DNA of 64,000 nt, taken from assembly GCA_052388435.1 (NCBI GenBank), contig JBQTIC010000019.1, positions 13,769 to 77,768 on the forward strand, given 5' to 3'. Positions within the stretch are counted from its first letter, which is position 1, and each line of letters opens with the position of its first letter. A model generated the notes under the pieces. It saw nothing but the letters and a program-made list of their open reading frames with translations, made no database searches and was not told the DNA's origin. Origin of the DNA: Chromatiales bacterium (GTDB lineage: Bacteria > Pseudomonadota > Gammaproteobacteria > JAJPIJ01). This document shows positions 4,582 to 44,667 of the stretch, one piece after another. The position numbers and the translations under genes are program-made.

Positions 4582-5064
4582 CTAGCGGTAACGGTAGATC
4601 GGTCCGGCGTCGTCGGCAGCGGGCTGGTAACGGACGCTGAACTCCTTGAAGGCATTCAGCGCATCCTCGATGTTCTTGTCCTCGCGAACCGCGAAGGAAT
4701 CGATGCCGCAGCGGCGCATGAAGTAGAGCTGATCGCGCAGCACATCCCCTATGGCGCGCAGCTCTCCCGTGTAGCGGTACCGCTCGCGCAGGAGGCGCGC
4801 GTGCGAGAAGCAGCGGCCGTCACCGAATTTGGGAAACTCCAGCGCAACAAGCGCGAAATGTCCCAGGTCCTCCGCTATGGCGGAGGCTGGAATGCTGCCG
4901 TCAACCCGCACACCGACATGTCCGTCGCGGGCAAGGAGCTCCTCGCGCTCCTTCTGCCAGCGAGCATGACTGACGATGACGTCGCCGTTCGGCAACTCCT
5001 CCTCGTCACCGACGAGGATCCAGCCGTCGTCGACGATTCTCAGATCCTTGTTAATGACCCGCAT
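4582..5064 (-). CDS. DUF934-family protein associated with sulfite reductase; start at ATG 5064, overlapping the cysI stop by 14 nt
   Basis: About 160 aa protein immediately downstream of the CysI-type gene, the arrangement seen for the Pseudomonas cysI partner. GGAGAAGG Shine-Dalgarno 9 nt upstream of ATG 5064. Confidence 0.65.
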   Translation of the reverse strand: MRVINKDLRIVDDGWILVGDEEELPNGDVIVSHARWQKEREELLARDGHVGVRVDGSIPASAIAEDLGHFALVALEFPKFGDGRCFSHARLLRERYRYTGELRAIGDVLRDQLYFMRRCGIDSFAVREDKNIEDALNAFKEFSVRYQPAADDAGPIYRYR

Positions 5065-6757
5065 AGGCGCGCACCTTCTCCGTCTCGCCGCCACCGTCGT
5101 AGACCCGCTGCTTGAACGGCTCGATCCCTATGCGCCGCACGCAGTCCAGGAATGGCTCGTCGCCTTCGCGGTGCTCGACGAACACGTCGAGGATCCTGCC
5201 GATGGCATCCGCGACATCGGACTTGGCCAGCGACGGCCCCAGACGCTCTCCGAGCGAGGCATCGTTACCCGCCGAGCCGCCCAACTGGAACTGATAGAAC
5301 TCCACGCCGTCCTTGTCTACCCCCAGTATGCCAATGTGGCCGGCATGGTGGTGACCGCAGGCGTTCATGCAGCCGGACATCTTCAACTGAATCTCGCCGA
5401 GGTCGTAGAGGTAATCGAGATCGGTGAACTTGTCGTTGATCTGCTTTGCGATCGCGATGGAGCTGGCATTGGCCAGCGAACAGAAATCCAGGCCAGGGCA
5501 GCAAATCATGTCGGTGAGGGTGCCGATATTGGGCGTGGCGAAGTTGCAGCGCTTCAGCTCCTGCCACAATGCGTAGAGATCGCCCTGACGCACATCGGAG
5601 AAGAGCAGGTTCTGCGTGTGGGTGACGCGGATCTCGCCGAAGTTATAGCGTTCCGCCATGTCGGCGACGGCGTCCATCTGCTCCGCCGTCGCATCGCCGG
5701 GCGCCACCTCCGGCGCCTTGAGTGAAATATAGACGACGCGGTAGCCGGGCACTTTGTGATTGGCAGTGTTACGCTTCACCCAGGTGGCGAAGGCCTTGTC
5801 GCCGGCGAGGTGATGCTCGAAGGTCCTGTCCCTGACCGCCGCCGTGTCATAGGCCGGCGGGCCGAAGAAGGCCTTGACCCGTTCGATCTCCTTCTCATCG
5901 AGGATGTAGGAGTCTTTGATCTGCGCCCATTCCTCCTCGACCTTCTGCCGGAACTTTTCTGCGCCGAGGCTCTTCACCAGGATCTTGATCCGCGCCTTGT
6001 GGATGTTGTCTCGACGACCCTCAAGGTTATAGATGCGCAGGATGGCGTCGAGGTAGGAGAGCAGGTACTTCTTCTCCAGGAACTCGCGGACCACCACGCC
6101 GATGACCGGCGTGCGGCCCATGCCGCCACCGACCAGTATCTTGAACCCGACCTCGCCCTGGGCGCTGCGGACCAGATAGAGACCGATGTCGTGCCACTGC
6201 ACGGCCGCGCGGTCCTCCAGGGCACCGCTGAAGGCAAGCTTGAACTTGCGGGGTAGCCAGGAGAACTCGGGGTGGAACGTCGACCACTGGCGCGCGATCT
6301 CGCAATACGGCCGCGGGTCCTCGATCTCGTCCCCGGCGACTCCCGCCAGATGATCGGCGGTGATGTTGCGCACGCAATTGCCGGAGGTCTGGATGGCATG
6401 CATCTGCACGCTTGCCAGGTGCGCTAGGATGTCGGGCACGTCCTCCACCTTCGGCCAGTTGTACTGGATGTTCTGGCGCGTGGTGAAGTGGCCGTAGCCC
6501 TTGTCGTAGCGGCGCGCGATGTGGGCCAGCATGCGCAACTGCCCGGAGCTGAGCAGGCCGTAGGGAATGGCCACCCGCAACATGGGCGCAAAACGTTGGA
6601 GATACAGACCATTGCGCAGGCGCAGCGGTCGGAACTCGTCGTCGGCCAGCTCACCAGCAAGATAGCGGCGCGTCTGGTCCCGAAACTGCGCCACGCGCTC
6701 ATTCACGATGATCTGGTCGTAGTGGTCATAGTGATACATCAGTTTTCTACCCAGCAA
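5051..6757 (-). CDS. cysI: assimilatory sulfite reductase hemoprotein, CysI type (siroheme / 4Fe-4S, nitrite/sulfite reductase family)
   Basis: 568 aa; N-terminal MYHYDHYDQ; two NIR_SIR ferredoxin-like halves; cysteine cluster CCPGLDFC...SGCMNACG. Confidence 0.85.
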   Translation of the reverse strand: MLGRKLMYHYDHYDQIIVNERVAQFRDQTRRYLAGELADDEFRPLRLRNGLYLQRFAPMLRVAIPYGLLSSGQLRMLAHIARRYDKGYGHFTTRQNIQYNWPKVEDVPDILAHLASVQMHAIQTSGNCVRNITADHLAGVAGDEIEDPRPYCEIARQWSTFHPEFSWLPRKFKLAFSGALEDRAAVQWHDIGLYLVRSAQGEVGFKILVGGGMGRTPVIGVVVREFLEKKYLLSYLDAILRIYNLEGRRDNIHKARIKILVKSLGAEKFRQKVEEEWAQIKDSYILDEKEIERVKAFFGPPAYDTAAVRDRTFEHHLAGDKAFATWVKRNTANHKVPGYRVVYISLKAPEVAPGDATAEQMDAVADMAERYNFGEIRVTHTQNLLFSDVRQGDLYALWQELKRCNFATPNIGTLTDMICCPGLDFCSLANASSIAIAKQINDKFTDLDYLYDLGEIQLKMSGCMNACGHHHAGHIGILGVDKDGVEFYQFQLGGSAGNDASLGERLGPSLAKSDVADAIGRILDVFVEHREGDEPFLDCVRRIGIEPFKQRVYDGGGETEKVRAYAGH

Positions 6758-6899
6758 GCGTCCAGCTCAATGGCTCCGGCCTTTGCCGGTGGCGCGGCAC
6801 TTTAGCAATAAGTGTTTAGTCTGAAAAGAACTTAAGGTATACGATTTATTCTCTTTCGTTATTTATAGCGCAGGCCCTCCCCTGGTCGTCCCTGGCAAG

Positions 6900-7478
6900 T
6901 CAGTCGGCAAGCCGTTCGAGCAGGTCGGCCACCCCGACCCGTTTCGGCGCCTTTGCTGTGACGCAGAAACGCTCCTTCATGTCCGCCTCCCGCGTCAGGC
7001 TGTAAGCACCGTCGGGGTAGAGCCTCCCGAGGAGCGCGCGCATGCCCGGCTCGAGCTCCGCGTAGGTCGCGTCGCTGTTCGGGGCGACCAGGCGATCGTT
7101 CGAGAAGACCTGCACCTCGTCGCCGCGGAATACAAGCTGGCCCCGCGTCTCCGGCTCCTGCTCCAGAAGCCGGCAGGCCTTGAGCGCCTTGCGGCAAACC
7201 GTCGCAAGTCGCTCCGGCAGTTGGCCGGGCATCGTGTGTTTACTGTAGTAGACGAGACCACGGCGGTTGCCGGTCTCGTCGTAGCCGTAGTTGCCTTCGT
7301 GGGCCACGAGCACGATGCCCGGCCCAGTCCAGACGTGGCTGTAGTCGACAACATCGATGAGCAGGTCCTCAAGCGCCCGCGTCTGGATCCAGCGGTGGAA
7401 GATGGGGATGAACTCGAGTAGCGCGATCGGCGCGCTCTCTTCAGCGAAGAACTTGACTCCGACTCTGTGCAGCTCCAA
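6900..7478 (-). CDS. hypothetical protein, 192 aa, lying between the two siroheme reductase genes
   Basis: Intact ORF; stop of the upstream reductase (7485) is 6 nt from this start (7478), suggesting co-transcription. No family recognised by eye. Confidence 0.5.
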   Translation of the reverse strand: MELHRVGVKFFAEESAPIALLEFIPIFHRWIQTRALEDLLIDVVDYSHVWTGPGIVLVAHEGNYGYDETGNRRGLVYYSKHTMPGQLPERLATVCRKALKACRLLEQEPETRGQLVFRGDEVQVFSNDRLVAPNSDATYAELEPGMRALLGRLYPDGAYSLTREADMKERFCVTAKAPKRVGVADLLERLAD

Positions 7479-7484
7479 CGCCTG

Positions 7485-9776
7485 CTACGTGCCGGTCGCG
7501 CGCGCCACGGAGGCACCGGTGGCCGCCGGCGCTGCACGTCCCTGCTCCAGCATCCGTGCGTGGCAGGCATACGCCGCCTCGATGAAGAGCTGCGCCTCCT
7601 CCAGCAGTCGCCGCGCTTTCTCGTCGCTGAAGTCGCGCGCCGTGTCCTCATGGCGCTTGAAGAGGTACTCGGCGAATTTACCGCCCGCGTACTGGTCGTG
7701 GAAGAGTCGGGTATCGTGGAAGCGTCGGCGGAACTCTGCGACGAGGGTGTCTGGATTATCCCTGATGTCCTGGCCTTGCTGGCGGACCAGCGCCTTGGCG
7801 GCTTCCAGCATCGCCGCATAGGCGGTCTCGTCGGCTCTCCGATGGTCTTTCTCGCGGAGCAGGAGCTGAGCTTCGAAGCACAGACGCTCCGCCGACTGCA
7901 GATCGAACTCGATCCGGGAGACCACCTCGCCGGCGCACTCACCCGTGCCAATGTCACTTACAGTGAATTCGCGCGGATCACGCCAGTCGGAGTAGTACGA
8001 GCGGTCATCCTCGTACGGAGGGACTGTTGCGAACTCGTCGACGAGCGCCTTCACCGCCTTCGGTCCGATGCGCTGGACGTAGTCGCGGAAGGGCTCGCCG
8101 TTCTGCCGTTTTTCCAGATACCGGGCGACAATGCAGTCGACGAAATCGGGGACCCGTTTCGAGGGCACGGCGCCAATCGTATCGCCGTAAGTGCCCGCGT
8201 TTTCACTCCACTGTCCACCCAGCAGGACGCGGAAGTGTGGCACTGTGGTCTTGCCGACCTTGCGGCTCACTCCATAGAAGCCGAGGTCCGCGACCTGGTG
8301 CTGGCCGCAGGCATTGAAGCAGCCGCTTATCTTGATGTGCAGGCGCTGCACGGCGCGGTCGAGCTGCTGGTAGCGCACTGCCAGCCGCTCGCGCAGCACT
8401 GCCGCGAGGCCGCGTGAGGAGGCAATGCCGAGCTTACAGGTATCCGTTCCCGGGCAGGCTGTGATGTCCAGGATGGTGCCGGCACCCGGCTCGCTCAGAC
8501 CGATGCGCTGCAGGTCCCGATACAGGGCCGGAAGGTCTGCCTCTGGCACCCAGCGCAGCACGATGTTCTGCTCCACGGTCGTGCGTACGTTGTCGCCCGC
8601 GTAGCGGCGCGCGATGTCGGCGAGTTGGCGCGTCTGCCAGGAGCTGATGTCGCCAATCGGCAGTGTCACCGTCGCCACCGCATAGCCGGGCTGGCGCTGG
8701 GGATACATGTTGGTGGCGCGCCAGGCCTCAAATGCGGTATCCGGACTCCCGATGTCCAGCTTGTTGGATGGCGGCCGGAGCGGCTTTTCGGCGAAGTCCG
8801 GGACATCCTTGAGGAAGGCTGTCCACGCATCGTCGTGTGAGAGGTGCTTCCGCTCCTCAAGCACCAACTCGCGGAACTTGTCAATGCCGAGCTTCTCGAT
8901 CAGGAACTTGATGCGTGCGCGCCCCCGGTTGCGCTTTTCCCCCAGGCGGGCATAGACGCGCGAGACGGCCTGCGCGAGCGGCAGGATCTCCTCCTGGGGG
9001 ACGAAGTCGGCGAAGAGCTTGGATTTATAAGGGACTGCTCCGAGGCCGCCGCCCACGTACATCTCGAAGCCGCGGCGCTCCGTGCCGTCCTCAACGCGAG
9101 TGCGGGCGATGAACCCTATGTCGTGGATGGCCGTCAGCGCGCAGGCTTCGTTTCCGCAGCCCGAGAAGGCGATCTTGAACTTGCGCCCGAAGTCCTGCGT
9201 GTCCGGATGCCCCAGCAGGAAGTAGGCGCAGGCCTTCGCATAGGGTGTGACGTCAAAGGTCTCGGTGTGGCACACCCCGGCATAGGGACAGGCCGTGACG
9301 TTGCGGATGGCATTACCACAGGCTTCGCGAGTGGTGATCCCGACCGCCGCAAGGCGGCGCATGAGGTCGGGCGTGTCGTCGATGTGGATATAGTGGAGCT
9401 GGATGTCCTGACGGGTGGTCACATGGCAGATGGCGTCTGAGTACTCCTCCGCAACATCCGCCAGTACGTCCATCTGCTCCGGTGTGAGCCCGCCAAAGGG
9501 GATCTTGATGCGCTGCATGCCAGGCGCGTCCCAAAGGGTGTCCGAACCCTTGGTCAGCTCCGCGGGGACGCGCAGCGCGCGCCGCGCAACGCCGTCGTGG
9601 CGCTGCCCGTTGTCGTAGCGCTGGCCGTAGACGCCGCGGCGCAGGCGGGTTTCCGCGAACAGCTTGTCCTCGACCTGGCCCCTGCGCTTCAGCTCAAGCT
9701 GGGTCTCATAGACGTCGATCTCCCGCGCTAGAGCAGGAGCCATCTTGTCCGCCAGCCGCTCTTTCCAAGTAATCAC
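7485..9776 (-). CDS. ferredoxin-dependent nitrite/sulfite reductase (NirA/Sir type) with about 190-aa C-terminal extension
   Basis: 763 aa; two NIR_SIR repeats; siroheme/4Fe-4S cysteines TACPGTDTC...SGCFNACG. The C-terminal about 190 aa beyond the reductase core are helical with no recognised domain. Confidence 0.8.
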   Translation of the reverse strand: MITWKERLADKMAPALAREIDVYETQLELKRRGQVEDKLFAETRLRRGVYGQRYDNGQRHDGVARRALRVPAELTKGSDTLWDAPGMQRIKIPFGGLTPEQMDVLADVAEEYSDAICHVTTRQDIQLHYIHIDDTPDLMRRLAAVGITTREACGNAIRNVTACPYAGVCHTETFDVTPYAKACAYFLLGHPDTQDFGRKFKIAFSGCGNEACALTAIHDIGFIARTRVEDGTERRGFEMYVGGGLGAVPYKSKLFADFVPQEEILPLAQAVSRVYARLGEKRNRGRARIKFLIEKLGIDKFRELVLEERKHLSHDDAWTAFLKDVPDFAEKPLRPPSNKLDIGSPDTAFEAWRATNMYPQRQPGYAVATVTLPIGDISSWQTRQLADIARRYAGDNVRTTVEQNIVLRWVPEADLPALYRDLQRIGLSEPGAGTILDITACPGTDTCKLGIASSRGLAAVLRERLAVRYQQLDRAVQRLHIKISGCFNACGQHQVADLGFYGVSRKVGKTTVPHFRVLLGGQWSENAGTYGDTIGAVPSKRVPDFVDCIVARYLEKRQNGEPFRDYVQRIGPKAVKALVDEFATVPPYEDDRSYYSDWRDPREFTVSDIGTGECAGEVVSRIEFDLQSAERLCFEAQLLLREKDHRRADETAYAAMLEAAKALVRQQGQDIRDNPDTLVAEFRRRFHDTRLFHDQYAGGKFAEYLFKRHEDTARDFSDEKARRLLEEAQLFIEAAYACHARMLEQGRAAPAATGASVARATGT

Positions 9777-10074
9777 AACACCTCACCCCTCACCGTTTTG
9801 GGTCTGAGCCGTCGTCGAAGCATGGCGACAAGCTCTCTTCCCGCTGACCTGGCCCTGCACGCCGACATTCGACTCTGGCGCCCACAACTCATCGCGGGTC
9901 CTGTTAACTAAGATAACAGTAGACGCTTAGTGTTCGTACAGCCTCTTATCGCTAAGAATATAACCGGCAGTGCTTAAGTTGCATGAACGCTCCCCGCGGC
10001 GCGACGGCGTGGAATGCCTCGGATACGCGACACAGGTATTGACACCACCTTGTGCCCGCCCGGTTTCGCGGGGG

Positions 10075-12129
10075 TTAGTCCTCCGTCTCCGCCGGCTTGA
10101 AGTCGGCCATCAGTTGTTGCTGCAATCGCGCCGGCACCGGGTCGTAGTGACTCAACTGGACCGAGTAGGAGCCGGTGCCCCCGGTCAATGATTTCAGACG
10201 TGACTGATAGCCGTTCAGTTCGGCGAGCGGAACCTGCCCGCTGATCGCCGTCATGCTCCCTGCGCCGGCGATGTCGGTGCTGTTCACCCGCCCGCGCTTG
10301 CTGGACAGATCGCCGGCAATGTCCCCCATGCAGTTGCTGGGCGCGGTGATGTTCACGTCAACGATGGGCTCTAGCACGACGGGCCGGGCCTTCTTCACCG
10401 CGTCGATAAACGCCTTTTTTCCGGCTGTCACGAACGCGACCTCCTTGGAGTCCACTGTGTGGTATTTGCCGTCGTAGACCGTCACCTGGATGTCCTGCAT
10501 TGGAAAGCCTGCGATCACACCCTCGGTCAGCGCCTGACGTATGCCTTTCTCGACCGCCGGAATGAACTGCCGCGGTATCACCCCACCCACTACGGCGTCG
10601 ACGAATTCGAACCCCGCGCCCCGCGGCAGCGGCGACACGCGCAGGAACACCTCGCCGAACTGACCGGCGCCGCCGGTCTGCTTCTTGTGGCGGTGATGAC
10701 CCTCCGCCGGTGCGGTGATGGTCTCCTTGTAGGCAATGCGCGGCTGGCTCGTCTCCAACTCAACGTGAAAGCGGGTGCGGAGATCTTCCAGCAGCACCCG
10801 CAGATGCAGTTCGCCCATGCCGCGGATCACGGTCTGATTGATCTGCGGGTTGTACTCCACGCGCATGCTCGGGTCCTCGGCGGCGAGTTTGTGTAGCGCG
10901 TCGGAGATCTTCTGCTCATCGCCGCGGCTCTTTGCATGCACGGCCAGCCCCTGCATCGGCTCCGGGAAACTGATCGGCCGCAGACGTATGTGGTCCTCGT
11001 CATGGGAGTCGTGCACCACGGCGTCGAAGTGCAGGTCATCCACCTTCGCCACCGCGCAGATGTCGCCGGGGATCCCATCACTGATCTCCGCGGTGTCCTT
11101 GCCCTTCAGCTTGAGCAGGTGCGCAACCTTGAACGGCTTGCGACCGTCGCAGATGAAAAGCTGGCTGTCCTTGGTCACCGTTCCCTGGTGGATGCGAAAC
11201 ACGCCGATGCGGCCGACGAAGGGGTCGATAGTGACCTTGAATACATGCGCGAGCGCGTGTCCCTTCGCGTCCGCACTGAAATGAAGACGCTCAGCCGCTT
11301 CGCCCCCGCCCTTGAGAAACGTCGGCGCATTGCCCTCGGTCGGACCGGGCAGCAGCCGGATGACGATCTCCAGCAGCTCTGCGACTCCGGCGCCGCTGCG
11401 CGCGGAGGTGAAGCAGACCGGGATCAGATGGCCCTCGCGCAGCGCCTTCTCAAACGGGTCGTGCAACTGCTCGGGGTCGAGTTCCTCGCCCTGCTCCAGA
11501 TACACCTCCATCAGTTTCTCGTCGACCTCGACGACCTGGTCGACGAGCGCGCTATGGGCCGCCTTCACGGAGGAGAAATCGGTCGGACCGCCGTCGGGCT
11601 TGAAGAAGCAGTCCGCCACGGCGGCGCTCTTTTGCGCCGGCAGATTGATGGGCAGGCACTCCATGCCGAACGCGGCGCGGATGTCGGCGAGGCATTTCTC
11701 CAAGTCCACATTCTCGGCGTCGATGCGGTTGACGATGATTAAGCGATCGAGCTCCCGCTCCTTCGCCCAGGCCATCATCTTGTGCGCCACCATGTCCACG
11801 CCGCTCGCTGCGTTGATGACCACCGCCACCGTCTCCACCGCCGGCAGGACGGCCAGCGCCCGGCCAATAAAATCCGGATACCCCGGCGTGTCAATGAGGT
11901 TGATGTGCTTGCCTTGGTGGTCGAGACTGACGATCGCAGTGTGGAGGGAGTGCTGCAGAACCTTTTCCTGGGGGTCGAAGTCGGACAAGGTCGTTCCCTT
12001 GTCAACCGCCCCCATGGTTTTGATGCCACCGGTACGGTGTGCCAGTGCCTCGATGAGAGTGGTCTTGCCGCCGCCAGCCGTCCCCACGATAGCGACATTA
12101 CGGATGTCCGCCGTGGTGTAGCTCGCCAT
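10075..12129 (-). CDS. elongation factor G-like translational GTPase paralog with divergent G motifs
   Basis: 684 aa; G1 GTAGGGKTT; EF-G domain order conserved. G3 reads DTPGY rather than DTPGH, and G4 reads NRID rather than NKxD. Confidence 0.8.
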   Translation of the reverse strand: MASYTTADIRNVAIVGTAGGGKTTLIEALAHRTGGIKTMGAVDKGTTLSDFDPQEKVLQHSLHTAIVSLDHQGKHINLIDTPGYPDFIGRALAVLPAVETVAVVINAASGVDMVAHKMMAWAKERELDRLIIVNRIDAENVDLEKCLADIRAAFGMECLPINLPAQKSAAVADCFFKPDGGPTDFSSVKAAHSALVDQVVEVDEKLMEVYLEQGEELDPEQLHDPFEKALREGHLIPVCFTSARSGAGVAELLEIVIRLLPGPTEGNAPTFLKGGGEAAERLHFSADAKGHALAHVFKVTIDPFVGRIGVFRIHQGTVTKDSQLFICDGRKPFKVAHLLKLKGKDTAEISDGIPGDICAVAKVDDLHFDAVVHDSHDEDHIRLRPISFPEPMQGLAVHAKSRGDEQKISDALHKLAAEDPSMRVEYNPQINQTVIRGMGELHLRVLLEDLRTRFHVELETSQPRIAYKETITAPAEGHHRHKKQTGGAGQFGEVFLRVSPLPRGAGFEFVDAVVGGVIPRQFIPAVEKGIRQALTEGVIAGFPMQDIQVTVYDGKYHTVDSKEVAFVTAGKKAFIDAVKKARPVVLEPIVDVNITAPSNCMGDIAGDLSSKRGRVNSTDIAGAGSMTAISGQVPLAELNGYQSRLKSLTGGTGSYSVQLSHYDPVPARLQQQLMADFKPAETED

Positions 12130-15978: not shown

Positions 15979-17103
15979 ATGCCCATGAACGTCAAGGAAT
16001 CCGCGCCGTTGCTCCGCACCCCGCTGCACGCCCTGCATGTCTCGCTCGGGGCGAGGATGGCGCCGTTCGCCGGCTATGAGATGCCAATCCATTACGGGCA
16101 GGGGATCGTTCGCGAACACCTGCACACGCGCGCGGCCGCCGGCCTGTTCGATGTCTCGCACATGGGCCAGATCCGGCTGACCGGCAAGCTCGCGGCGCTG
16201 GAGCGGCTCTGCCCCATCGATGTGACGGCAATGCAGCCTGGCCGGCAGCGCTACAGCTTTTTCACCACTGGATCAGGAGGCATACTCGATGACCTCATGG
16301 TCACGCGCGTCGGCGATCACTTGCTGCTGGTGGTTAATGCCGCACGCAGGCGCGAGGATGTCGCGCATCTCCGGCAGCACCTGAGGGCGGACTGTTGTGT
16401 CGAGGAACTCTCTGACCGCGCCTTGCTCGCCCTCCAGGGACCGGCCGCTGCGGCCGTGCTGGCGCGGCTGGCGGCGGACACCGCCAGACTTGTGTTCATG
16501 ACCGGCGCATGGTTTGCAATCGCGGACGCAGAATGCTTCGTCACCCGTTCCGGCTACACCGGCGAGGACGGATTCGAGATCTCAGTGCCCGTCGCGCTGG
16601 CCGAGCACCTCGCCAGGGCGCTGCTCGCTCATCCTGAGGTCGCGCCTGCCGGCCTCGGGGCACGTGATTCGCTGCGACTGGAGGCCGGGATGTGCCTGCA
16701 CGGCCATGACATTGACGCCACGACCACTCCCGTGGAGGCCAACCTCGGCTGGGCGATCCCGCCTAGCCGCCGCGAAGGCGCGTGCACGGGTGGTTTCCCG
16801 GGCTCCGAAGTCATTCTCCCGCAACTGCGCGAGGGCGCATCGCGCAAGCGCGTCGGCCTCATTCCGGAGGGTAGAATACCCGTGCGCGAAGGCGCCGAGC
16901 TGCTCACTAACGAAGGCGAGCCGCTCGGACGCGTCACCAGCGGTGGCTTCAGCCCAACGTTGAACCGTCCTATCGCCATGGGCTATGTCAACACGGCCGC
17001 GAGCGCGGCCGGCACGCCGCTCGGGACATCGGTGCGCAGCAAGCCGGTGGCCATCCAGGTGGCACGCCTCCCGTTTGTCACGCCGCGATACCATCGGGGC
17101 TAG
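15979..17103 (+). CDS. gcvT: glycine cleavage system T protein (aminomethyltransferase)
   Basis: Aligns along its full length with E. coli GcvT (TPLH..H..LGARM..FAG..MP..Y, GLFDVSHMG). Confidence 0.9.
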   Translation: MPMNVKESAPLLRTPLHALHVSLGARMAPFAGYEMPIHYGQGIVREHLHTRAAAGLFDVSHMGQIRLTGKLAALERLCPIDVTAMQPGRQRYSFFTTGSGGILDDLMVTRVGDHLLLVVNAARRREDVAHLRQHLRADCCVEELSDRALLALQGPAAAAVLARLAADTARLVFMTGAWFAIADAECFVTRSGYTGEDGFEISVPVALAEHLARALLAHPEVAPAGLGARDSLRLEAGMCLHGHDIDATTTPVEANLGWAIPPSRREGACTGGFPGSEVILPQLREGASRKRVGLIPEGRIPVREGAELLTNEGEPLGRVTSGGFSPTLNRPIAMGYVNTAASAAGTPLGTSVRSKPVAIQVARLPFVTPRYHRG

Positions 17104-17150
17104 AATTCCTACGAACACATTTCATCTCACGCGAGAGGGAGAGCACCGAC

Positions 17151-17531
17151 ATGAGTGAACTGAAGTTTACGCGGGACCATGAATGGATACGGCTGGAGGG
17201 CGACGGCATCGCCGCGGTCGGCATCACCGAATACGCCCAGCAACAGCTTGGTGACGTGGTGTTCGTGGAACTCCCGGCAGTCGGCGAAGAGGTGGATCAG
17301 GGCGAGGAGGCGGCGGTCGTGGAGTCGGTCAAGGCGGCTGGCGAGGTAAAGGCGCCCGTGAGCGGCAAGGTGCTGGAAGTGAACAGCGCGCTCGGCGACG
17401 AACCGCAGAAGGTCAACGCCGATCCGACCGGCGACGGCTGGTTCTTCCGCCTGAAGCTCGGCGACCCGGAAGAGCTGGACGGATTGATGGATGAGGCCGG
17501 CTACGCGGAGTATGTCAAGGGTCTGGACTGA
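17151..17531 (+). CDS. gcvH: glycine cleavage system H protein (lipoyl carrier)
   Basis: 126 aa; lipoyl-lysine motif ESVKAAGEV; typical GcvH N-terminus. Confidence 0.9.
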
Positions 17532-17539
17532 TTGACACC

Positions 17540-20467
<2,928 letters not shown>

Positions 20468-21139: not shown

Positions 21140-21518
21140 TTCAGGCGGTCTGGCAGCGGGCACCAGCGCTTCGTTCAGGGTCCTTCGGAGGACTGTGCCT
21201 CGTCGGATGAGTTCACTGCCGCTGTTTGACATCCTGGCTCTGGCAGTGATCTTGACCAGCCGGAGGGCTCGAATTGGCATGTCCGGGCAAACGTGTTACC
21301 GTGCCAGCGTCTACAGTAGTTTCCAACTGTGGCAAAGGCATTCGGCGCCATTTCTTCTGGAAGCGTAGCGGCTGTTGCCAGCGTTCGTTCTCTGCGAAGT
21401 CCTTACCCGATTTCCTGCGTTGTTGTTGGCATTCTCACCTGTAAGGCACCGCCTCCGCAGTCAGCGCTCGGAGGCTTACATTAACTAAACCGCGATAAGC
21501 GGATCGGAGACATGAACA

Positions 21519-21833
21519 ATGGCAAAGAGCATCTACGTGGGCAACCTCGCGCCCTCGATCACGCAGGAGGAGATCCGCAAACTGTTCGAGGAATTTGGCG
21601 AGGTCGAATCTGTCGAAATACTCATGGATCGGTACACCGGCGAGTCGCGCGGCTTCGGCTTTGTGAAGATGCCGGAGAAGGGTGCGCAGGCGGCAATCGC
21701 TGCGCTCGACAAGAAACTGGTGGGCGACCGAAACCTCAAGGTTAACGAAGCCACCCCGCGCAAGCTGAGCGGCGGATCGCGCCCCCGCGGAGGCGCATTC
21801 GGCAATGGCGGCGGTGGGCGTCGACGTTACTGA
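21519..21833 (+). CDS. RRM-type RNA-binding protein with glycine-rich C-terminus
   Basis: RNP-2 IYVGNL and RNP-1 RGFGFVKM motifs; C-terminal GGxRPRGGAFGNGGGGRRRY tail. Confidence 0.8.
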   Translation: MAKSIYVGNLAPSITQEEIRKLFEEFGEVESVEILMDRYTGESRGFGFVKMPEKGAQAAIAALDKKLVGDRNLKVNEATPRKLSGGSRPRGGAFGNGGGGRRRY

Positions 21834-23667: not shown

Positions 23668-24092
23668 TCACTCTGTTTGGTACCACCTTGCCGCCCGTCC
23701 CAATACCAGCTGTTTGACCTTGGCGGCAGCCGCAATCTCGCCGATTACGGACGGCGACATATGCAATCGTCGCTCTACGCCTTGCGCCCCTTCCGGGACG
23801 GCATTGTGGGCAATGAACACATCAGCGTCGCGAGCAAGTTCAGCGAGCGCCCCTTCGCCGTTCGTATCTTCGCTGAACACGGCACTGCGACCCGCCACCT
23901 CCACTCGCCAGGCGAGTGCCGGGATCGCGCCGTGGATGGCGGCTGTGGCAAACGCCTGCAGGTTCGCGCCGGAGTATAAAGATCCGCGCTGTGATCCACG
24001 TGTAAGTGGGTGAACAGCACCACATCGAGATCGGATACGGTGGCTCCTGATTGCCCGAATCGCAGCGCCGCGCCGCCGCCCATGTCGATCAA
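23668..24092 (-). pseudogene. disrupted metallo-beta-lactamase-fold hydrolase, frameshifted and probably N-terminally truncated
   Basis: HxHxDH motif (LFTHLHVDHSADL) in one frame (24092 down to about 23975); MBL C-terminal blocks (FIAHNAVPE...HMSP) continue in a second frame (about 23975 down to 23668). Neither frame alone gives a full MBL protein. Confidence 0.5.
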
Positions 24093-24191
24093 TCAGTGCA
24101 CGCCTTCTCTCGTGCCATATCAGATAACTGCTGGAGAGTCCATAGCGCCGCATTCATTCCGTCGCGCTCGAACGTTCGACATCCCCTGATC

Positions 24192-24638
24192 TCAGGAAGC
24201 ATCTCGCCTCCAGGGATCGTAGTTACCAAAGTTCCAGAGGTGGCCCTCTGGGTCCCGGCAGGAGTAGCCACGGCCACCGTAATCCTCATCCTTGATTTCA
24301 ATGACAATCTCTGCGCCGTTGGTAACAGCACGGGCATAGTGTGCGTCAGTATCCGCGACAATTACATAAGGGCTTTGCGAACCCACGCCGCCGAGATCGC
24401 GAGGCGGCTTCACAAGTTTTCCAAACGCATCATCCCTTGCGGACGCCACCATGATCATGCCGTTGCCAAACGTGAGCTGTGCGTGAGCGATGGTGTTCTT
24501 CTCGCCCGGCACGACAAGGAGCTTCTCGAACCCGAACGTTCGACACAGCCACTCGATAGCGGCCGGAGCATCGTGATAGGTCATGGTAGGGATTACCGTC
24601 GATGTCGTGTTCTTTGCGTGTTCGGTCATGCATCGCAC
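24192..24638 (-). CDS. VOC-family (glyoxalase/bleomycin-resistance fold, PhnB-like) protein
   Basis: 148 aa; paired beta-alpha-beta-beta-beta module pattern typical of PhnB/VOC proteins. Confidence 0.65.
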   Translation of the reverse strand: MRCMTEHAKNTTSTVIPTMTYHDAPAAIEWLCRTFGFEKLLVVPGEKNTIAHAQLTFGNGMIMVASARDDAFGKLVKPPRDLGGVGSQSPYVIVADTDAHYARAVTNGAEIVIEIKDEDYGGRGYSCRDPEGHLWNFGNYDPWRRDAS

Positions 24639-25054
24639 CTCGCTACTACGTGAATTCTCTTACAAGGATATGGGCGATATTGAGGTGGTGAGGCGCCCAG
24701 CAGCTCGAGAGAGTATAACGGGGCAGGACACCGTTCCAGTTCAGTGCACTTACGGACCGGGCATGTCCCGTGTGCGATGGACCAGCCGCCCGAGGCTCAA
24801 CACCCGGGCGGAACGCCGCCAATGCGCGTATAGTGATGATGTTTCCTGAGAGGTTGGCTCGAATTGAGCGCTCAGGTCGTGAAGTCCGGCGGACGTCGCC
24901 GATGGGCGCCGCCAGACTATCGCCGCAAGCTCGCCACCCTCTTAACCTCTTCGTCCGCACCGAGCCAACCGGTGCGCATGTTTTCCGCGCGAGCACATTG
25001 GTCCAGCCCATGAAGGCTCTGACAGAGCGGCGCAGATGACACTGATGGTCGGCA

Positions 25055-25088
25055 TCCGGGCAGGGCAACGCGGATCCGGCCCTTTTTT
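25055..25088 (+). promoter_or_regulatory. terminator/attenuator-like hairpin plus T6 inside the leader of the second RRM gene
   Basis: GC-rich imperfect stem containing the CGGATCCG palindrome, followed by TTTTTT at 25083-25088; 33 nt upstream of the RRM2 ATG. Confidence 0.35.
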
Positions 25089-25120
25089 CGACCTACCCAT
25101 CGCGATCAGAGACAAGATAT

Positions 25121-25405
25121 ATGGCAACCAGCATCTATGTGGGTAACCTCGCCCAGTCGACTACCAATCAGGACATTCGAGCCCTGTTCGAGCAGTTCGG
25201 CAAGGTCGAATCCGTGAACATATTGATTGACGGCCGCACGGGCGCGTCTGGAGGATTTGGTTTCGTGAAGATGAACGATGCGAGCGCGAAAGCCGCCATT
25301 GCCGCCCTCGATATGACGCTGCTCGCCGGACGGAATCTCGCAGTACACGAAGCGGCACCCCGTAGAGTCAGCGATGCATTCGGCCGGGGAGCCTGGCCTC
25401 ACTGA
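25121..25405 (+). CDS. RRM-type RNA-binding protein, second paralog
   Basis: IYVGNL RNP-2 and GGFGFVKM RNP-1 variant; 94 aa; lacks the glycine-rich tail of the first paralog. Confidence 0.75.
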   Translation: MATSIYVGNLAQSTTNQDIRALFEQFGKVESVNILIDGRTGASGGFGFVKMNDASAKAAIAALDMTLLAGRNLAVHEAAPRRVSDAFGRGAWPH

Positions 25406-25515
25406 GTTTGGCAGTATCACATCGACGGGGGCTGCGGGCCGCCTTCGATGTGAGCAACCAGATCGAACACTCATGCCGGTAGTACGAAATAACCGTCAAT
25501 AGGAGAACTGAAATC

Positions 25516-26010
25516 ATGCTCAAAGAGTTTGAACGGGTAAAGAAATGGCAGGCCTCTCCTGAGAAAATGGACGAAAGAATCAACAGACTCAGGACCGCGG
25601 AGGAGTGTGAAATATTCTCGAAAAACGTCACTGAACGTGGTTTCCCTGAACTCGCCGCCAGAGCTCAGCGCCGGGCCGTCGAGTTGCAGGCCGCCACACA
25701 CGACGCGCACAGTGAAGCAGAGAGAGACGCGCTGAAAGCCGTTTACGCCTACGAACAAATCCTCAGCAAAGCGAAGCTGAAGAAGACCCGTGCGACCGGC
25801 ACTTGGCAGCTGGTCAGGCGCCTCGGGGTTATCGGGGCGATACAGTCATTGGTAAATCGAAACGCCGGCGAGGCCCACTTTACGACATTGAAGGAAACGG
25901 GGATGCAAGACCTCGCATTCGAGTCGATAGTCTTGAAGCACCCTGAGGCATACATACCGGAGACTGTGGAGCGATGTGCTGCCCGTCTGGGAGAGTGGAC
26001 GCAAGCGTGA
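25516..26010 (+). CDS. hypothetical protein, 164 aa, in a lower-GC islet
   Basis: AGGAGA Shine-Dalgarno 8 nt upstream of the ATG; hairpin plus T-tract terminator at 26020-26051; no recognised domain; local GC clearly below its surroundings. Confidence 0.5.
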   Translation: MLKEFERVKKWQASPEKMDERINRLRTAEECEIFSKNVTERGFPELAARAQRRAVELQAATHDAHSEAERDALKAVYAYEQILSKAKLKKTRATGTWQLVRRLGVIGAIQSLVNRNAGEAHFTTLKETGMQDLAFESIVLKHPEAYIPETVERCAARLGEWTQA

Positions 26011-26131
26011 GAGTTCGCTGAAGAGCCCCGCCAATGCGGGCTTCTGTTTTATCCTGCAGAAGCAGCCTCTGGACTACCGCCACCCGACGGATCAACACCG
26101 TCATCAGAGATGGCGGACCTCGGTCGCGTCA

Positions 26132-26245
26132 TTAATGCATGAATCTCCTGCTCTCTTTCTTTGCCCTCTTCGCCGCCCTCTTTTCGTCTGCAGTCTTCGC
26201 GGGCTTCTTTTTGCTTTCCTTCTTCCGTTCCATACCTTTACTCAT
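26132..26245 (-). CDS. small lysine/arginine-rich protein, 37 aa, not in the supplied ORF track
   Basis: MSKGMERKKESKKKPAKTADEKRAAKRAKKESRRFMH; GGAGAG Shine-Dalgarno 6 nt upstream of the ATG; an in-frame stop 5 codons upstream confirms a stand-alone ORF. Confidence 0.35.
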   Translation of the reverse strand: MSKGMERKKESKKKPAKTADEKRAAKRAKKESRRFMH

Positions 26246-26681
26246 GTCTGTCTCTCCTCATGATCGAGGTTGATGTGACGTCAGCGGTTTTTCTAAGCAA
26301 ATCATAGAAAGTCTAGTTGACCGGCGCCGTTTCTTGTAGACAGTAAGGCAGTAAATTGGTTGGGTATCATAGCGTAAGGCGGACTGCCCGGTTGGACTAC
26401 CGATGTTTGATCAGATCATCGACGGTGAGCCCTGTACCTTTGGCGATTTGCCGAAGGGGCGGTTAAAAACGGGAGGTGTCTGTTACAGCACGCGGGGCGA
26501 ACGTAAGTTCGCTGAAATAATCGATGATGCGCTTCCATAAACCGGACAAACCTCCCCCTCGATTCGGTGCGGCGAACCCGCGATGCTCACGTTGCGCGCG
26601 TCGCGCGCGTCGCGGTTTCCCCTCACCCCTTCCCTCTCCCGCTGATGCGGGAGAAGGAGAGCAGGAAGGAATTGGGTAGGA

Positions 26682-28808
26682 CTAGGCGCGGGCGACTTCG
26701 ACCAAGTTGTCGAAGAAGGTCGGGCAATGGCCCATGCCGCCAAACACGGCCGGCGCGACACTGTTCACCGTACCTACCGGGTTGAGGGTCCGCCAGTAAC
26801 CCAGTGTGGCCACCACGATGCCGTGGTTCACATCGTCGGTGAGCCTGGCATTGCCGAGGAACTGGCCGTTGTCGTTGTACACGCGCACCTTGTCGCCTTC
26901 CTTGATGCCACGCGCGGCGGCGTCCCTGGGACTGATAAGGACGAACTGCTCGCCCTGGCCATGGATTTTCTTGGCCTCGTTCGCATAGCAGGAGTTGAGG
27001 AAGCCGTGGCTCTTCGGCGCGACGATGTTGAGGGGGTACTTCTTCGCCAGCTCGGCGTTGGTCTCCGGGCGGTAGCGCGGCGGCCGGTAGTCGGGCACCG
27101 GATCGATGGACTCACCGCCCTGCATGCCGTCGTACATCTGCCGGAACACGGTGGCGACGAAATCGCCGTTGGCCGCCCCGCTCGCGTGGATCTCGACCTT
27201 GCCTGAGGGGGTCGGGAAGTTGCCTGCCTTGTGCGGGCAGCGGTTGTCGGGCGTGCCCACATTGAGGTGGGCATAACCGATTTGATCGAAGGTATCCATC
27301 GTGATGCCCTGCATCGCTGGCGCGTCCCAATTGATGTGGTGTTCGATCATCTCGCGATCGCTCATGGTGAACTGCGGGTTGTCGAAGCCCATCAACTTCG
27401 CGAGCCGCCGGAAGATCTCCTGGTTCGGCAGCGACTCGCCCGCAGGCTCGATCGCCTTCTGGTTGTGGGTGAGATAGAAATGGCCCCACGACCACACCAT
27501 GTCCTCGGCCTCGGCGGCCAGCGACGCGGGCAGGATGATGTCGGCATAGGAGGCGGTATCGCTCATGAACTGTTCGGCGGCGACGGTGAAGAGATCCTCG
27601 CGTTTGAGTCCGGCGACGGTCTTGTCGCTTTCCGGCGCCTGGGTTACCGGGTTCGTGTTATATACGAACAGCGACTTGATCGGGGTTTTCAGCGGCAACT
27701 CGCCGGTAAGCGCACGGCCGGTTTGCAGGATGTTGACGACTTGCGTGCCCTCGGGGATCCAGTCCGGACGGCAGACGCGATCCCAGTGGATCGGGAACTC
27801 CCACACCGGCATCTCCAGCGTGCCGCCGCCGACATGCCGCCAGGCACCGATCAGCGCCGGCAGGATGGCCGCCAGGCGTATGGCATCTGTGCCCCCGGCA
27901 CTGCGCTCGAGCCCCACGCCGACGCGGATGGCCGCCGGCTTCACAGTGGCATACTCACGCGCGAGCTTGCGGATGTCGTGGGCCTTGATACCTGTGATGG
28001 TCTCCGCCCACTCAGGCGTGCACTTGAGCGCACGCGCCTTCAACTCTTCGAAGCCGGTGGTGTACTTCTCGATGTAATCGCGATCGAGCAGGTTCTCCGT
28101 GATGAGCACGTTGACCCACGCCATTGCGAGGGCGCCATCGGTGCCGGGCTTGATGGCGATGTGCCAGTCAGCCTTCTTGGCGGTGATCGACTTGTAAGCA
28201 TCGATGACCACTACCTTGGCGCCATTTTCCTGCGCGCGCCGGATGAACGGCCAGTGATGCAGATTGGTGGACAAGGTATTGCACGCCCAGATGATGATGA
28301 ACTTGGAATGGACAAAGCTTTCCGGATCCACCCCGCCGGTCGGGCCGACAGTCAGCAGCCAGGCGGTCGAAGAACCGGACGCGCAGTAGGTTTTTTCGCA
28401 AACGGTCGCGCCGAGGCGGTTAAAAAAGGCATCACCGGCGGTGATGCCATGCACGAGCCCCTGATTGCCGAGGTAGGAGAGCGGCAGGATCGCCTGCGCG
28501 CCGTGCTCCTTGATGATCGCGGTCCAGCGCTGCCTGATCTCGGCGAGCGCCTGCTCCCAGGAGATGCGCACGTACTGGCGGCTGCCTTTGGGTCCGTTGC
28601 GCTTCAAGGGGAACAGCAGGCGATCAGCGTTGTAATGGCGCTCGTCGTAGTCCTTGAGCTTCACGCACAGACCACCCGCCGTCATCGGATGATCCGCGTT
28701 TCCCTTCACACTGATGAGCCGGCCGTTTTCCACGGTATAAACAAAGGCACAGGTGTCGGGGCAATCGTGCGGGCAGGCGCCGTGATATGTCTTGATCTGA
28801 GCTGCCAT
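26682..28808 (-). CDS. cytoplasmic molybdopterin (bis-MGD) oxidoreductase, MopB superfamily, uncharacterised subfamily
   Basis: 708 aa; N-terminal 4Fe-4S cysteine motif CPHDCPDTC...C; molybdopterin-binding and C-terminal MopB-CT domains; no Tat signal. Confidence 0.85.
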   Translation of the reverse strand: MAAQIKTYHGACPHDCPDTCAFVYTVENGRLISVKGNADHPMTAGGLCVKLKDYDERHYNADRLLFPLKRNGPKGSRQYVRISWEQALAEIRQRWTAIIKEHGAQAILPLSYLGNQGLVHGITAGDAFFNRLGATVCEKTYCASGSSTAWLLTVGPTGGVDPESFVHSKFIIIWACNTLSTNLHHWPFIRRAQENGAKVVVIDAYKSITAKKADWHIAIKPGTDGALAMAWVNVLITENLLDRDYIEKYTTGFEELKARALKCTPEWAETITGIKAHDIRKLAREYATVKPAAIRVGVGLERSAGGTDAIRLAAILPALIGAWRHVGGGTLEMPVWEFPIHWDRVCRPDWIPEGTQVVNILQTGRALTGELPLKTPIKSLFVYNTNPVTQAPESDKTVAGLKREDLFTVAAEQFMSDTASYADIILPASLAAEAEDMVWSWGHFYLTHNQKAIEPAGESLPNQEIFRRLAKLMGFDNPQFTMSDREMIEHHINWDAPAMQGITMDTFDQIGYAHLNVGTPDNRCPHKAGNFPTPSGKVEIHASGAANGDFVATVFRQMYDGMQGGESIDPVPDYRPPRYRPETNAELAKKYPLNIVAPKSHGFLNSCYANEAKKIHGQGEQFVLISPRDAAARGIKEGDKVRVYNDNGQFLGNARLTDDVNHGIVVATLGYWRTLNPVGTVNSVAPAVFGGMGHCPTFFDNLVEVARA

Positions 28809-28971
28809 GGGCGACCTCCAGGCCGGAACTTATGATTGTGATAGCGGGACAACACGGGAGTCCGGGACTCTACACCTGTTCGCTGACAGGCGGCAATCGC
28901 GGCCGCATTGCTGCAGCGCACGCACCAAGTGCGCGCCGCAGGTGGGGCGGCCGGGATCAACGCGACCGCGC

Positions 28972-29427: not shown

Positions 29428-29453
29428 GGGACGTTCCTCTGAGCCAAACCTTG

Positions 29454-30080: not shown

Positions 30081-30422
30081 GCCTGCTCTCCTGTGTCGGG
30101 ACGGGACACTGTGACGTTAGATGGACCACGCAGCCCATTCGTTACACGCCAAATGCCCGCGCGCCAGAGACTGCGCGGATCAGGGCGGCAGCATCGGCAC
30201 TGCGGCGCTGGTGTCCTTGAGCGCCACCCCGGATAGCTTCAGGCGCAGCGCCTCGGAGAGCAGGTAGTAGAGCTTGTGGGCGCCAAATCGTAGCTTAAAA
30301 CGGATGAACGAGCTGGAGAAGTTGTGCGAGCAGTGGCCGCTGGGGGGTACGCGTCGGCCAGCCCGACCTCTGAAGCCCAAGGGATGGAACCGTTACCGAA
30401 TCTGTCGCCCTGGAAAGTGGGC

Positions 30423-42566: not shown

Positions 42567-42642
42567 AATCCTCTCCGACCGGTGGAGGGGAAGTATGCGT
42601 GTCGCGTCTTCCCCACACCCCTTCCATTTTGACCGAGGAAGC

Positions 42643-44582: not shown

Positions 44583-44667
44583 AATCCCGTAATTGGTAAT
44601 CAGTGATTCATGACGGGCAAAGAGCTACCTGCTCAACGGCATTCACCCATCACTGGCCACTCGTCAT

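Follow-up and report, generated by a model that had tools for sequence, protein, structure and literature searches.

Why should two different siroheme reductase genes lie side by side in a Chromatiales bacterium, with no flavoprotein gene beside them? The window, which is the whole 64-kb stretch of DNA analysed, holds them in one minus-strand locus. Our answer, to which we give a probability of about 0.6, is that two interchangeable and non-orthologous assimilatory sulfite reductase systems, each CysJ-independent and separately promoted, have been caught together. The features on which the argument turns are as follows.

4582 to 5064, minus strand: DUF934 accessory protein gene, 160 aa, ATG at 5064 (the open reading frame spans 4582-5094)
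5051 to 6739, minus strand: Pseudomonas-type CysI siroheme sulfite reductase gene, 562 aa, ATG at 6739 (open reading frame 5051-6757)
6740 to 6899, minus strand: cysI promoter region with an AT-rich core
6900 to 7478, minus strand: unk192 gene, 192 aa, TTG start 6 nt past the upstream stop
7485 to 9776, minus strand: Nir763 gene, a 763-aa Sir-type siroheme reductase whose reductase part is residues 87-581
9141 to 9290, minus strand: N-half cysteine motif of Nir763, C163-x5-C169 ... C207-x4-C212, a putative second [4Fe-4S] site
8307 to 8456, minus strand: canonical siroheme-coupled cluster motif of Nir763, C441-x5-C447 ... C486-x3-C490
7932 to 7943, minus strand: GECA motif of Nir763 (G612-E-C614-A)
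7527 to 7919, minus strand: HEPN-fold helical tail of Nir763, about residues 620-750, without an Rx4-6H motif
9908 to 9965, minus strand: promoter/operator block 5' of Nir763, GGTTATATTCTTAGCGATAAG ... CTGTTATCTTAG

The four genes are genuine and not chance open reading frames, since each has conserved homologues numbering from hundreds to thousands. An earlier note on this DNA described the sizes of the genes, a gap of 142 bp and an overlap of 14 nt, and all of these were recovered, the overlap lying between the cysI stop (5051-5053) and the DUF934 ATG (5062-5064). The gap (6758-6899) deserves to be called promoter-like and AT-rich, with 50.7% GC and a core of 38% against 62.6% for the window. 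The translation of every long open reading frame in the window was read by eye, and doubtful ones were checked by HMM. No CysJ-like flavoprotein, cysH or cysD/N was found in the 64 kb, in agreement with the earlier note, and no nitrate-assimilation genes were found there. The molybdopterin oxidoreductase at 26682-28829 was tried as an assimilatory nitrate reductase and rejected (179 bits against a cutoff of 1100; best match in the DMSO/selenate family).

The chromosomal slot of the locus was compared among relatives. In the window its order is ZapE, EF-G, Nir763, unk192, cysI, DUF934, BamE and pyruvate kinase (PK). The closest relative, L093, has ZapE, EF-G, cysI, DUF934, BamE and PK in the same slot, and the more distant L010/14/19/47/48/52 have (ZapE), EF-G, Nir763, unk192 and PK. 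Neither DUF934 nor cysI is nearby at any of 80 other loci of the Nir763-unk192 module. Only the source genome has the two systems side by side, and the arrangement is not conserved. A functional two-reductase locus, as the earlier note had it, is therefore not upheld, because the slot of the relatives holds one system. One slot with alternative occupants is a natural experiment, which argues that the systems are interchangeable. Nir763 is 67-74% identical to its counterparts in the relatives, which tracks the 66-70% identity of the flanking EF-G and fits a long occupation of the slot. In direct alignment, the intergenic DNA of the window and that of L093 have diverged so far that no insertion or deletion could be dated.

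The promoters point in the same direction. The block upstream of Nir763 could be aligned both to a block that eight relatives conserve and to the promoter of cysI in L093. The conserved block is ATATTTAG ... CTTTTnTGAATAAG ... TGCTATCTTT, from which the window's own two promoters have diverged, having either three mismatches or no core match. The Nir763 block, whose motif is unique within the window, contains the palindrome CTTAGCGATAAG at 9945-9956. In the cysI promoter region, two sequences are related to the conserved operator block: CTTTTCAGACTAAA at 6815-6828 and CTTATTGCTAAA at 6801-6812. The exact CTTA-N4-TAAG is not conserved across module loci; the shared block emerged from a wider alignment. 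Judging from these alignments, a homologous promoter block may drive whichever gene comes first in the slot. A consensus scan for promoters and terminators gave nothing above chance in the locus, and a search for riboswitches and leader RNAs found nothing in Rfam at E ≤ 1 between 4300 and 10200.

cysI-DUF934 is an ordinary system of the Pseudomonas type. The DUF934 call is confirmed by PF06073 at 134.8 bits (cutoff 25, E 1.2e-39); an independent gene call in L001 likewise gives 160 aa, and DUF934 is kept 3' of cysI in L093, L094 and P. aeruginosa. The 562-aa length of the reductase (CysI562) agrees with that of its homologues, which are 70-91% identical. Over its full length, CysI562 shares 60% identity with the nitrite/sulfite reductase of P. 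aeruginosa (PA1838), whose gene overlaps the DUF934 gene (PA1837) directly 3' of it, so the Pseudomonas-type arrangement proposed earlier stands. In both cases the pair is isolated from other cys genes and has no cysJ; the overlap is 14 nt in the window and 4 nt in Pseudomonas, and otherwise nothing material differs. The name CysI-type is correct in the Pseudomonas sense only: the E. coli-type CysI equivalog models were far from reached (TIGR02041, 95 against a cutoff of 757; NF010029, 143 against 457), and the best scores were on NirA-like models. CysI562 has the CX5C...CX3C motif in its C-terminal half (CCPGLDFC ... CMNAC) and the RKFK site, and it is without the N-half cysteine motif and the GECA tail. 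The roles of DUF934 and DUF2849 are drawn from fitness data alone, in which cysI and DUF934 were needed for growth on sulfate in other species. DUF934 was cofit with sulfate assimilation genes and was named an "accessory protein for sulfite reduction", whereas the alternate electron source proposed was DUF2849, not DUF934 (Price et al., bioRxiv 10.1101/072470). This corrects the earlier suggestion that DUF934 substitutes for CysJ.

Nir763 and CysI562 each contain PF01077 (NIR_SIR) twice and PF03460 (NIR_SIR_ferr) twice, at 202-206 bits (cutoff 27) and 114-126 bits (cutoff 24), respectively. With 31-34% identity they are distant paralogues of different clades, which bears out the earlier claim of two distinct reductase lineages. 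Neither reached an NCBIfam equivalog cutoff, the best matches being NirA-like models. Nir763 scored 116 on TIGR02041 (cutoff 757) and 166 on NF010029 (cutoff 457), and the two reductases scored 224 and 223 bits on the NirA equivalog NF007125 (cutoff 594) and 134 and 112 bits on the Sir equivalog TIGR02042 (cutoff 731). By the last of these scores both lie outside the plant/cyanobacterial Sir orthologous group (TIGR02042), though they would be Sir-like in function. In the annotation of the source MAG, Nir763 is labelled hypothetical.

The best solved relative of both reductases is M. tuberculosis NirA/SirA (PDB 1zj8, E 6e-54 and 6e-43), a ferredoxin-dependent monomeric sulfite reductase. The M. 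tuberculosis enzyme shares the two-half architecture, the K-x-K site and the cluster motif of the C-half, and its Cys161 corresponds to C153 in Nir763. It has neither the N-half four-cysteine motif nor the YxDW...GECA extension, and no HEPN tail or unk192-like partner. Nir763 belongs to a group defined in this analysis, the GECA-tailed Sir clade, having both YxDW...G-E-C-A after the reductase core and the K-x-K site. Some members of this clade have a sulfate-assimilation context, the N-half four-cysteine motif is often kept across it, and its short members terminate 1-2 residues past GECA. The cluster cysteines C441, C447, C486 and C490 are invariant in 120/120 homologues of Nir763, as are C163, C169, C207 and C212 of the N-half motif, which can be aligned in register with the cluster motif of the C-half. 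Cys614 of GECA is also invariant in Nir763 homologues, and the corresponding cysteine of the clade was found in 98/111 representatives.

The tail after GECA has the HEPN four-helix fold. PF05168 gave 13.7 bits on it, under the cutoff of 22, and 24.3 bits on the sister protein P0245. The Rx4-6H motif is absent from the tail: at that place in the alignment the conserved residues read R-H-x-D, and the Arg is not followed by a His at a distance of 4-6 residues. In contrast to HEPN/UPF0332 proteins (AF0298, PDB 2hsb), the tail is fused to a metabolic redox enzyme and is not part of a toxin or defence system. A defence-system reading of the tail was rejected, as none of three proteins tested had a PADLOC match.

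The unk192 gene had been called unknown. That holds as far as family matches go: the 192-aa protein has no sequence match in Pfam, NCBIfam, PADLOC or PDB, profiles built on it found nothing among Pfam and PDB sequences, and the family, absent from Pfam, NCBIfam and PDB, is undescribed. It is not a bystander, however, but an obligate partner of the 763-aa reductase, the two being adjacent in 76/76 loci from five phyla-level groups. Distant unk192 homologues likewise follow divergent HEPN-tailed reductases. A peptide-pattern scan, which detects only relatives with one of two patterns, gave 503 matching stretches in 185,579 species genomes; no match was found in plasmids. Lineages with the module include Steroidobacteraceae, Myxococcota, Acidobacteriota and Methylococcales, and carriers in culture include Methylohalomonas lacus HMT 1 and Ectothiorhodospiraceae WFHF3C12. 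As a remote DUF934 homologue unk192 was rejected (hhalign probability 0.1%), and the two accessory proteins are unrelated. The best Foldseek match was AdoMetDC (E 3e-3, TM 0.40), and no fold was assigned.

Around the module, no further gene recurs at over 13 of the 80 loci; the neighbours that do recur are housekeeping synteny (PEP carboxylase, PK, ZapE, SSB, MFS and GlgB). Genes for an Rrf2 regulator and a globin adjoin one module locus, a possible sign of nitrosative chemistry. Because sulfate assimilation genes are not among the neighbours at the 80 loci, the functional link rests on the sister clades and on slot sharing. The Sir-HEPN-TusA fusions of Nitrospirota and Poribacteria share with Nir763 the reductase clade, GECA, the N-half cysteine motif and the HEPN domain after GECA. 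They end in TusA (62-70 bits) and are encoded between cysH and the ATP sulfurylase gene (sat), whereas Nir763 has no TusA and has unk192 instead; PF01206, the TusA domain, is absent from Nir763 and unk192 and was found in the sister proteins only. Another sister form, a short Sir, is followed by cysH. The fusion proteins are annotated as "sulfurtransferase TusA family protein" or "sulfite reductase (ferredoxin)", and our literature search found no paper on HEPN- or TusA-fused sulfite reductase. At the one TusA-fused form examined there was no unk192 homologue beside it, and a 223-aa unannotated gene nearby was rejected as such. From these sequence relationships we infer that Nir763 and unk192 belong to sulfite reduction.

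The two systems would then work as follows. In cysI-DUF934, a NirA-like hemoprotein would act together with an accessory protein, one that other bacteria need, on genetic evidence, to assimilate sulfate. In Nir763-unk192, the enzyme would be a ferredoxin-type Sir whose GECA end is lengthened by a HEPN-fold domain, with the gene of the 192-aa protein following; in the sister branches a TusA sulfur carrier fused after the HEPN domain would take the place of this separate protein. For unk192 our guess is that it binds the HEPN tail and serves there in docking or hand-over. Both systems may do the same job, the reduction of sulfite to sulfide (or protein-bound persulfide) for cysteine synthesis, and both probably draw electrons from a low-potential donor such as ferredoxin. 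It is plausible that the locus offers two electron-donor routes for sulfite reduction, as the earlier note had suggested. A shared target, one slot and one sulfur-responsive promoter for both systems, may explain why the two are neighbours. The source genome may keep both as a replacement intermediate or as a pair maintained for different conditions.

It is possible, though unlikely, that Nir763-unk192 is a sulfur-trafficking or sulfite-detoxifying reductase, passing persulfide to a carrier or running in reverse, in a sulfur-oxidising lifestyle in which cysI-DUF934 assimilates. Such a lifestyle is common in Chromatiales, Ectothiorhodospiraceae and Competibacteraceae, and a standard CysI coexists in the source genome. 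The TusA fusions of the sister forms would suit this role, as would the N-half cluster motif, kept as in two-site dissimilatory enzymes, and the invariant Cys614, which stands at the C-terminus of short forms and in our reading is reminiscent of the DsrC arm. However, the TusA-fused form sits with an assimilatory-type PAPS reductase and ATP sulfurylase, many of the lineages with the module, including the four named above, are not sulfur oxidisers, and dsr, sox, dsrE and tusA genes are not conserved as neighbours at the 80 module loci. The slot of the relatives also holds the module instead of, not besides, cysI-DUF934.

Quite unlikely, in our estimate, is the bolder view that Nir763-type enzymes are a mechanistic class of their own, with an N-half metal cluster, a DsrC-like GECA arm, presentation by HEPN and exit of the product as persulfide. 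A metal cluster, possibly with a second tetrapyrrole, would be kept in the N-terminal half; the GECA cysteine would be an in-cis, DsrC-like arm that takes sulfur off the siroheme; HEPN would present the arm to an acceptor or adaptor, which would be the fused TusA in some lineages and unk192 here; and the reduced sulfur would leave as a protein persulfide, not as free sulfide. According to the literature, the second, N-half site was lost in assimilatory enzymes. Nir763 is like DsrAB and Fsr in keeping cluster-type cysteines in both homologous halves, and its N-half matches the cluster-binding region of Fsr, with marginal similarity (E 1e-5 to 1e-14). It differs from them in being a fused assimilatory-type monomer with CX5C...CX3C and in having no inserted ferredoxin domain and no DsrC.

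The earlier note had also offered one paralog as a nitrite reductase, and we consider it improbable that Nir763-unk192 is an assimilatory ferredoxin-nitrite reductase that leaves sulfite to cysI-DUF934. The best NCBIfam matches are indeed "NirA family protein" and ferredoxin-nitrite reductase models, but their scores are far under the cutoffs (279 against 523; 224 against 594). Among the PDB sequence matches, plant nitrite reductases come next after M. tuberculosis NirA, itself a sulfite reductase despite its name. A Lys-x-Lys loop in place of Lys-x-Asn tells sulfite from nitrite reductases; both window enzymes have RKFK and the M. tuberculosis enzyme RKYK, against RKWN in tobacco nitrite reductase, and K-x-K is present in all 111 nearest cluster representatives. 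Since siroheme sulfite reductases generally reduce nitrite too, the K-x-K site does not exclude a nitrite substrate. With a bona fide CysI next to it, a second enzyme could be expected to have another substrate, and the Rrf2 regulator and globin preceding one module locus would fit nitrite. Against this, the sister clades are fused to TusA and placed between cysH and sat, the window has no nitrate/nitrite transporter or nitrate reductase, its lone Mo enzyme being DMSO/selenate-like, and the module and cysI-DUF934 swap in one slot under a homologous promoter.

Just as improbable is that a replacement is under way, with one system as its functionless remnant and no physiological meaning in the pairing: the relatives' slot retains one system only, and the highest identity found for a Nir763 homologue is 77% or less despite a 91% relative of cysI, which suggests recent loss in the sister lineage, but all four open reading frames are intact and full length with every invariant residue and cysteine kept, each operon has its own AT-rich promoter, and GC3 is typical of expressed genes of the source genome.

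If the reading of two interchangeable assimilatory systems is right, the Nir763-unk192 module would be a third, widespread solution for sulfite reduction without CysJ, beside DUF934 and DUF2849. Metabolic reconstructions that look only for cysIJ could then wrongly score sulfate assimilation as incomplete. The retained N-half cysteines and the invariant C-terminal cysteine make the textbook picture that one site was lost testable on one purified protein, and a separate mechanistic class of Nir763 type, if true, would contradict the loss of the second site in assimilatory enzymes.

The chromosomal position that runs from ZapE and EF-G to pyruvate kinase (the slot) holds either of two reductase systems, and both only in the window. 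One is the module, composed of Nir763 and unk192; the other is the cysI-DUF934 pair, whose reductase we call CysI562. The four minus-strand genes described in the earlier note at 4582-9776 are all real:

7485-9776, minus strand: Nir763, 763 aa, with two NIR_SIR_ferr/NIR_SIR repeats at residues 87-581
6900-7478, minus strand: unk192, 192 aa, with a TTG start 6 nt past the Nir763 stop
true start ATG at 6739, minus strand: cysI-type gene, 562 aa, as in its close homologues
start ATG at 5064, minus strand: DUF934 gene, 134.8 bits (Pfam cutoff 25)

This HMM score upholds the DUF934 assignment, and the 14-nt overlap of DUF934 with the cysI stop and the 142-bp AT-rich gap after unk192 (50.7% GC, core 38%, window 62.6%) were also borne out. 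In the source MAG, a Chromatiales genome, Nir763 is labelled "hypothetical protein" by NCBI (ACT4NU_02155); its homologues at 70-77% identity are named nitrite/sulfite reductase. Between the TAG stop of Nir763 and the TTG start of unk192 (7478-7487) lie 6 nt, and both are in one reading frame. In other loci the spacing ranges from small overlaps to ~15 nt without a conserved frame. The junction looks like translational coupling rather than readthrough.

Occupancy of the slot is deduced from gene orders across relatives (L handles are loci of other genomes).

Gene order in the slot and identity to the window
Window, reference: ZapE, EF-G, Nir763, unk192, cysI, DUF934, BamE, pyruvate kinase, Lon
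L093, closest relative, 77-91% protein identity over ten matched genes, except GcvT (74%) and Sel1 (70%): ZapE, EF-G, cysI, DUF934, BamE, pyruvate kinase, Lon; no module
L094/L095, 67-82% protein identity: ZapE, cysI, DUF934; pyruvate kinase next in L094
L010, L014, L019, L047, L048, ~53-71% identical: ZapE (unmatched in L047), EF-G, Nir763, unk192, pyruvate kinase; no cysI or DUF934 in the slot
L052, ~57-67% identical: Nir763, unk192, pyruvate kinase; ZapE and EF-G unmatched; no cysI/DUF934

Nir763 shares 67-74% identity with its orthologues in the relatives that carry the module here, in parallel with EF-G (66-70%), which suggests from sequence comparison that the module has long occupied the slot. 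There is no Nir763 homologue of >77% identity, whereas cysI has a 91% relative. The EF-G paralogue (10075-12129; NF009891, 1000 bits) lies directly upstream of the occupying reductase system in the window, L093 and 8 module loci; this is probably just synteny.

The earlier note had spoken of an "unknown gene" beside the reductase. It is right that unk192 has no match in Pfam, NCBIfam, PADLOC or PDB sequences, and none of its 248 detectable homologues is named, but it is no bystander. Scanning one genome per species by pattern gave 503 stretches encoding unk192 relatives, the majority from uncultured Gammaproteobacteria (Steroidobacteraceae, Competibacteraceae, Ectothiorhodospiraceae, Methylococcales) and others from Binatia, Myxococcota and Acidobacteriota. 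Among the 80 loci kept for comparison, including two named isolates, a Nir763 orthologue with the same tail lies directly 5' of unk192 in all 76 that have upstream sequence. Any other neighbour occurs in at most 13 of the 80, those recurring being housekeeping synteny, and a DUF934 or cysI-type paralogue occurs in none. More divergent tailed reductases (48-51% identical) also have distant unk192 homologues directly after them (hhalign probabilities 98.8% and 99.8%). Two lineages have other neighbours (L003 5914-10576, L005 4466-10576): in one, the module comes after genes for an Rrf2-family regulator, a truncated globin and 5-formyltetrahydrofolate cyclo-ligase; in another, it is oriented divergently from a 2-oxoacid:ferredoxin oxidoreductase, which might supply reduced ferredoxin.

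In the unk192 alignment 37 columns are invariant, many of them His, Asp, Tyr or Arg, and no cysteine is conserved. The AF2 model of unk192 has high confidence (pLDDT 89.7), and fold searches gave weak, partial matches only, to TBP-like or AdoMetDC-like sandwiches. A relationship to DUF934 was rejected by hhalign. Since unk192 goes with tails that lack TusA and itself carries no redox motif, our working guess is that it docks on the HEPN tail of Nir763.

This tail is predicted to adopt a HEPN fold, based on a confident model (pLDDT 82) and agreeing HEPN profile hits; it lacks the Rx4-6H motif. The C-half of Nir763 carries the canonical motif C441/C447/C486/C490. The N-half carries C163-x5-C169 ... 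C207-x4-C212, which all 120 of 120 homologues share and which an internal alignment places in exact register with the C-half motif. The N-half also matches the cluster-binding region of Fsr, a two-site siroheme sulfite reductase. According to the literature, assimilatory enzymes have lost this second site. In a search of 1.84 billion cluster representatives, the N-half motif was present beyond the Nir763 family too. Of the 111 nearest full-length representatives, 111 have K-x-K, 47 the four N-half cysteines and 98 the Cys614-equivalent cysteine in a conserved YxDW...GECA motif. The GECA clade has three forms: a short one (~575-620 aa) ending 1 or 2 residues past GECA, one with a tail of ~130-150 aa and one with ~210-240 aa. 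The longer tails are HEPN plus TusA (PF01206, 62-70 bits); in the sister protein P0245 HEPN is above the Pfam threshold, and two such reductases are named "sulfurtransferase TusA family protein" by NCBI.

The reductases are distant paralogues (31-34% identical), and both score poorly on the E. coli CysI models. The top NCBIfam scores of both are to NirA-like models, with neither reaching an equivalog cutoff, and M. tuberculosis NirA, known to be a sulfite reductase, is the nearest solved structure to each. A nitrite reductase is a main rival reading of the module, and the earlier note had one paralog possibly reducing nitrite. This is disfavoured by the anion-binding loop, RKFK in both enzymes by alignment, where the M. 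tuberculosis sulfite reductase has RKYK and tobacco nitrite reductase has RKWN, and by the sulfate-assimilation context and TusA fusion of sister genes. A Nitrospirota operon (L087 5703-10284) encodes a PAPS-reductase-family protein, a Sir-HEPN-TusA fusion (811 aa) and ATP sulfurylase, in that order, and a short GECA-type gene also has a PAPS-reductase-family gene directly after it. These neighbours, K-x-K and the sulfur-carrier fusion would place the GECA clade in sulfate rather than nitrite assimilation. The other main rival casts the module as an enzyme of sulfur trafficking or detoxification. Fusion of a sulfur-carrier domain to an assimilatory sulfite reductase seems not to have been described so far.

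Along its full length CysI562 shares 60% identity with a P. aeruginosa "nitrite/sulfite reductase", whose gene overlaps a DUF934 gene apart from other cys genes; by sequence, the cysI-DUF934 half is thus an ordinary Pseudomonas-type pair, as had been proposed. On the idea that DUF934 replaces CysJ, the literature differs: in fitness data DUF934 is an "accessory protein for sulfite reduction", and DUF2849 rather than DUF934 is the proposed alternate electron source (bioRxiv 10.1101/072470).

The absence of a flavoprotein partner and sulfur-assimilation genes holds across the 64-kb window: translations of every long ORF gave no recognisable CysJ-like flavoprotein, cysH, cysD/N or nitrate-assimilation gene. 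The sole molybdopterin enzyme (26682-30116, minus strand), cytoplasmic-looking with an N-terminal Cys cluster motif, was rejected as NasA-like; its top match, far under cutoff, is the DMSO/selenate reductase family, and as it adjoins msrA the two may be an S-oxide reductase pair. The window lies near the replication origin region (glmU, atp operon, parB, parA, rsmG and mnmG at 42643-57995). It also contains gcvT-gcvH-gcvP (15979-20467), two RRM-type RNA-binding protein genes (21516-21833, 25046-25405), lower coding GC3 with poorly defined ORFs at ~24-26.6 kb (24000-26600) and ~32-33 kb, and a 507-aa frame (41184-42707, minus strand) joining a nitrilase/CN-hydrolase domain (residues 56-316) to full RraA (residues 350-506) without an intervening stop, through fusion or through loss of a stop codon.

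A candidate promoter/operator block of ~55 nt, ATATTTAG-N2-CTTTTnTGAATAAG-N7-TGCTATCTTT, is found 5' of Nir763 in eight relatives (L008, L010, L012, L019, L030, L047, L048, L052) and, with two core mismatches, in the L093 cysI promoter (about 9905-9960). It is kept between genomes whose proteins share only 60-70% identity and precedes either Nir763 or cysI. In the window, the cysI promoter has a copy with three mismatches and the Nir763 promoter a more diverged version. The palindrome-like CTTA-N4-TAAR occurs in both reductase promoters (9945-9956, 6801-6812) and nowhere else in 64 kb (0.36 expected), weak evidence as the pattern was drawn post hoc from these two sites.

In conclusion, the cysI-DUF934 half is already known. 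New in the module are the undescribed accessory family, the lengthening of a metabolic reductase by HEPN (or HEPN-TusA) and the retained N-half cluster motif, for none of which a describing paper was found in the literature. We infer the substrate, donor, regulator and unk192 role at this locus. A remaining main rival is that one of the two systems is a remnant. In our reading, the two systems of the locus would both serve assimilatory sulfite reduction without CysJ, be interchangeable and be under related sulfur-type control; they may have been caught together in transit during replacement, or may be retained side by side to suit different donors or conditions.
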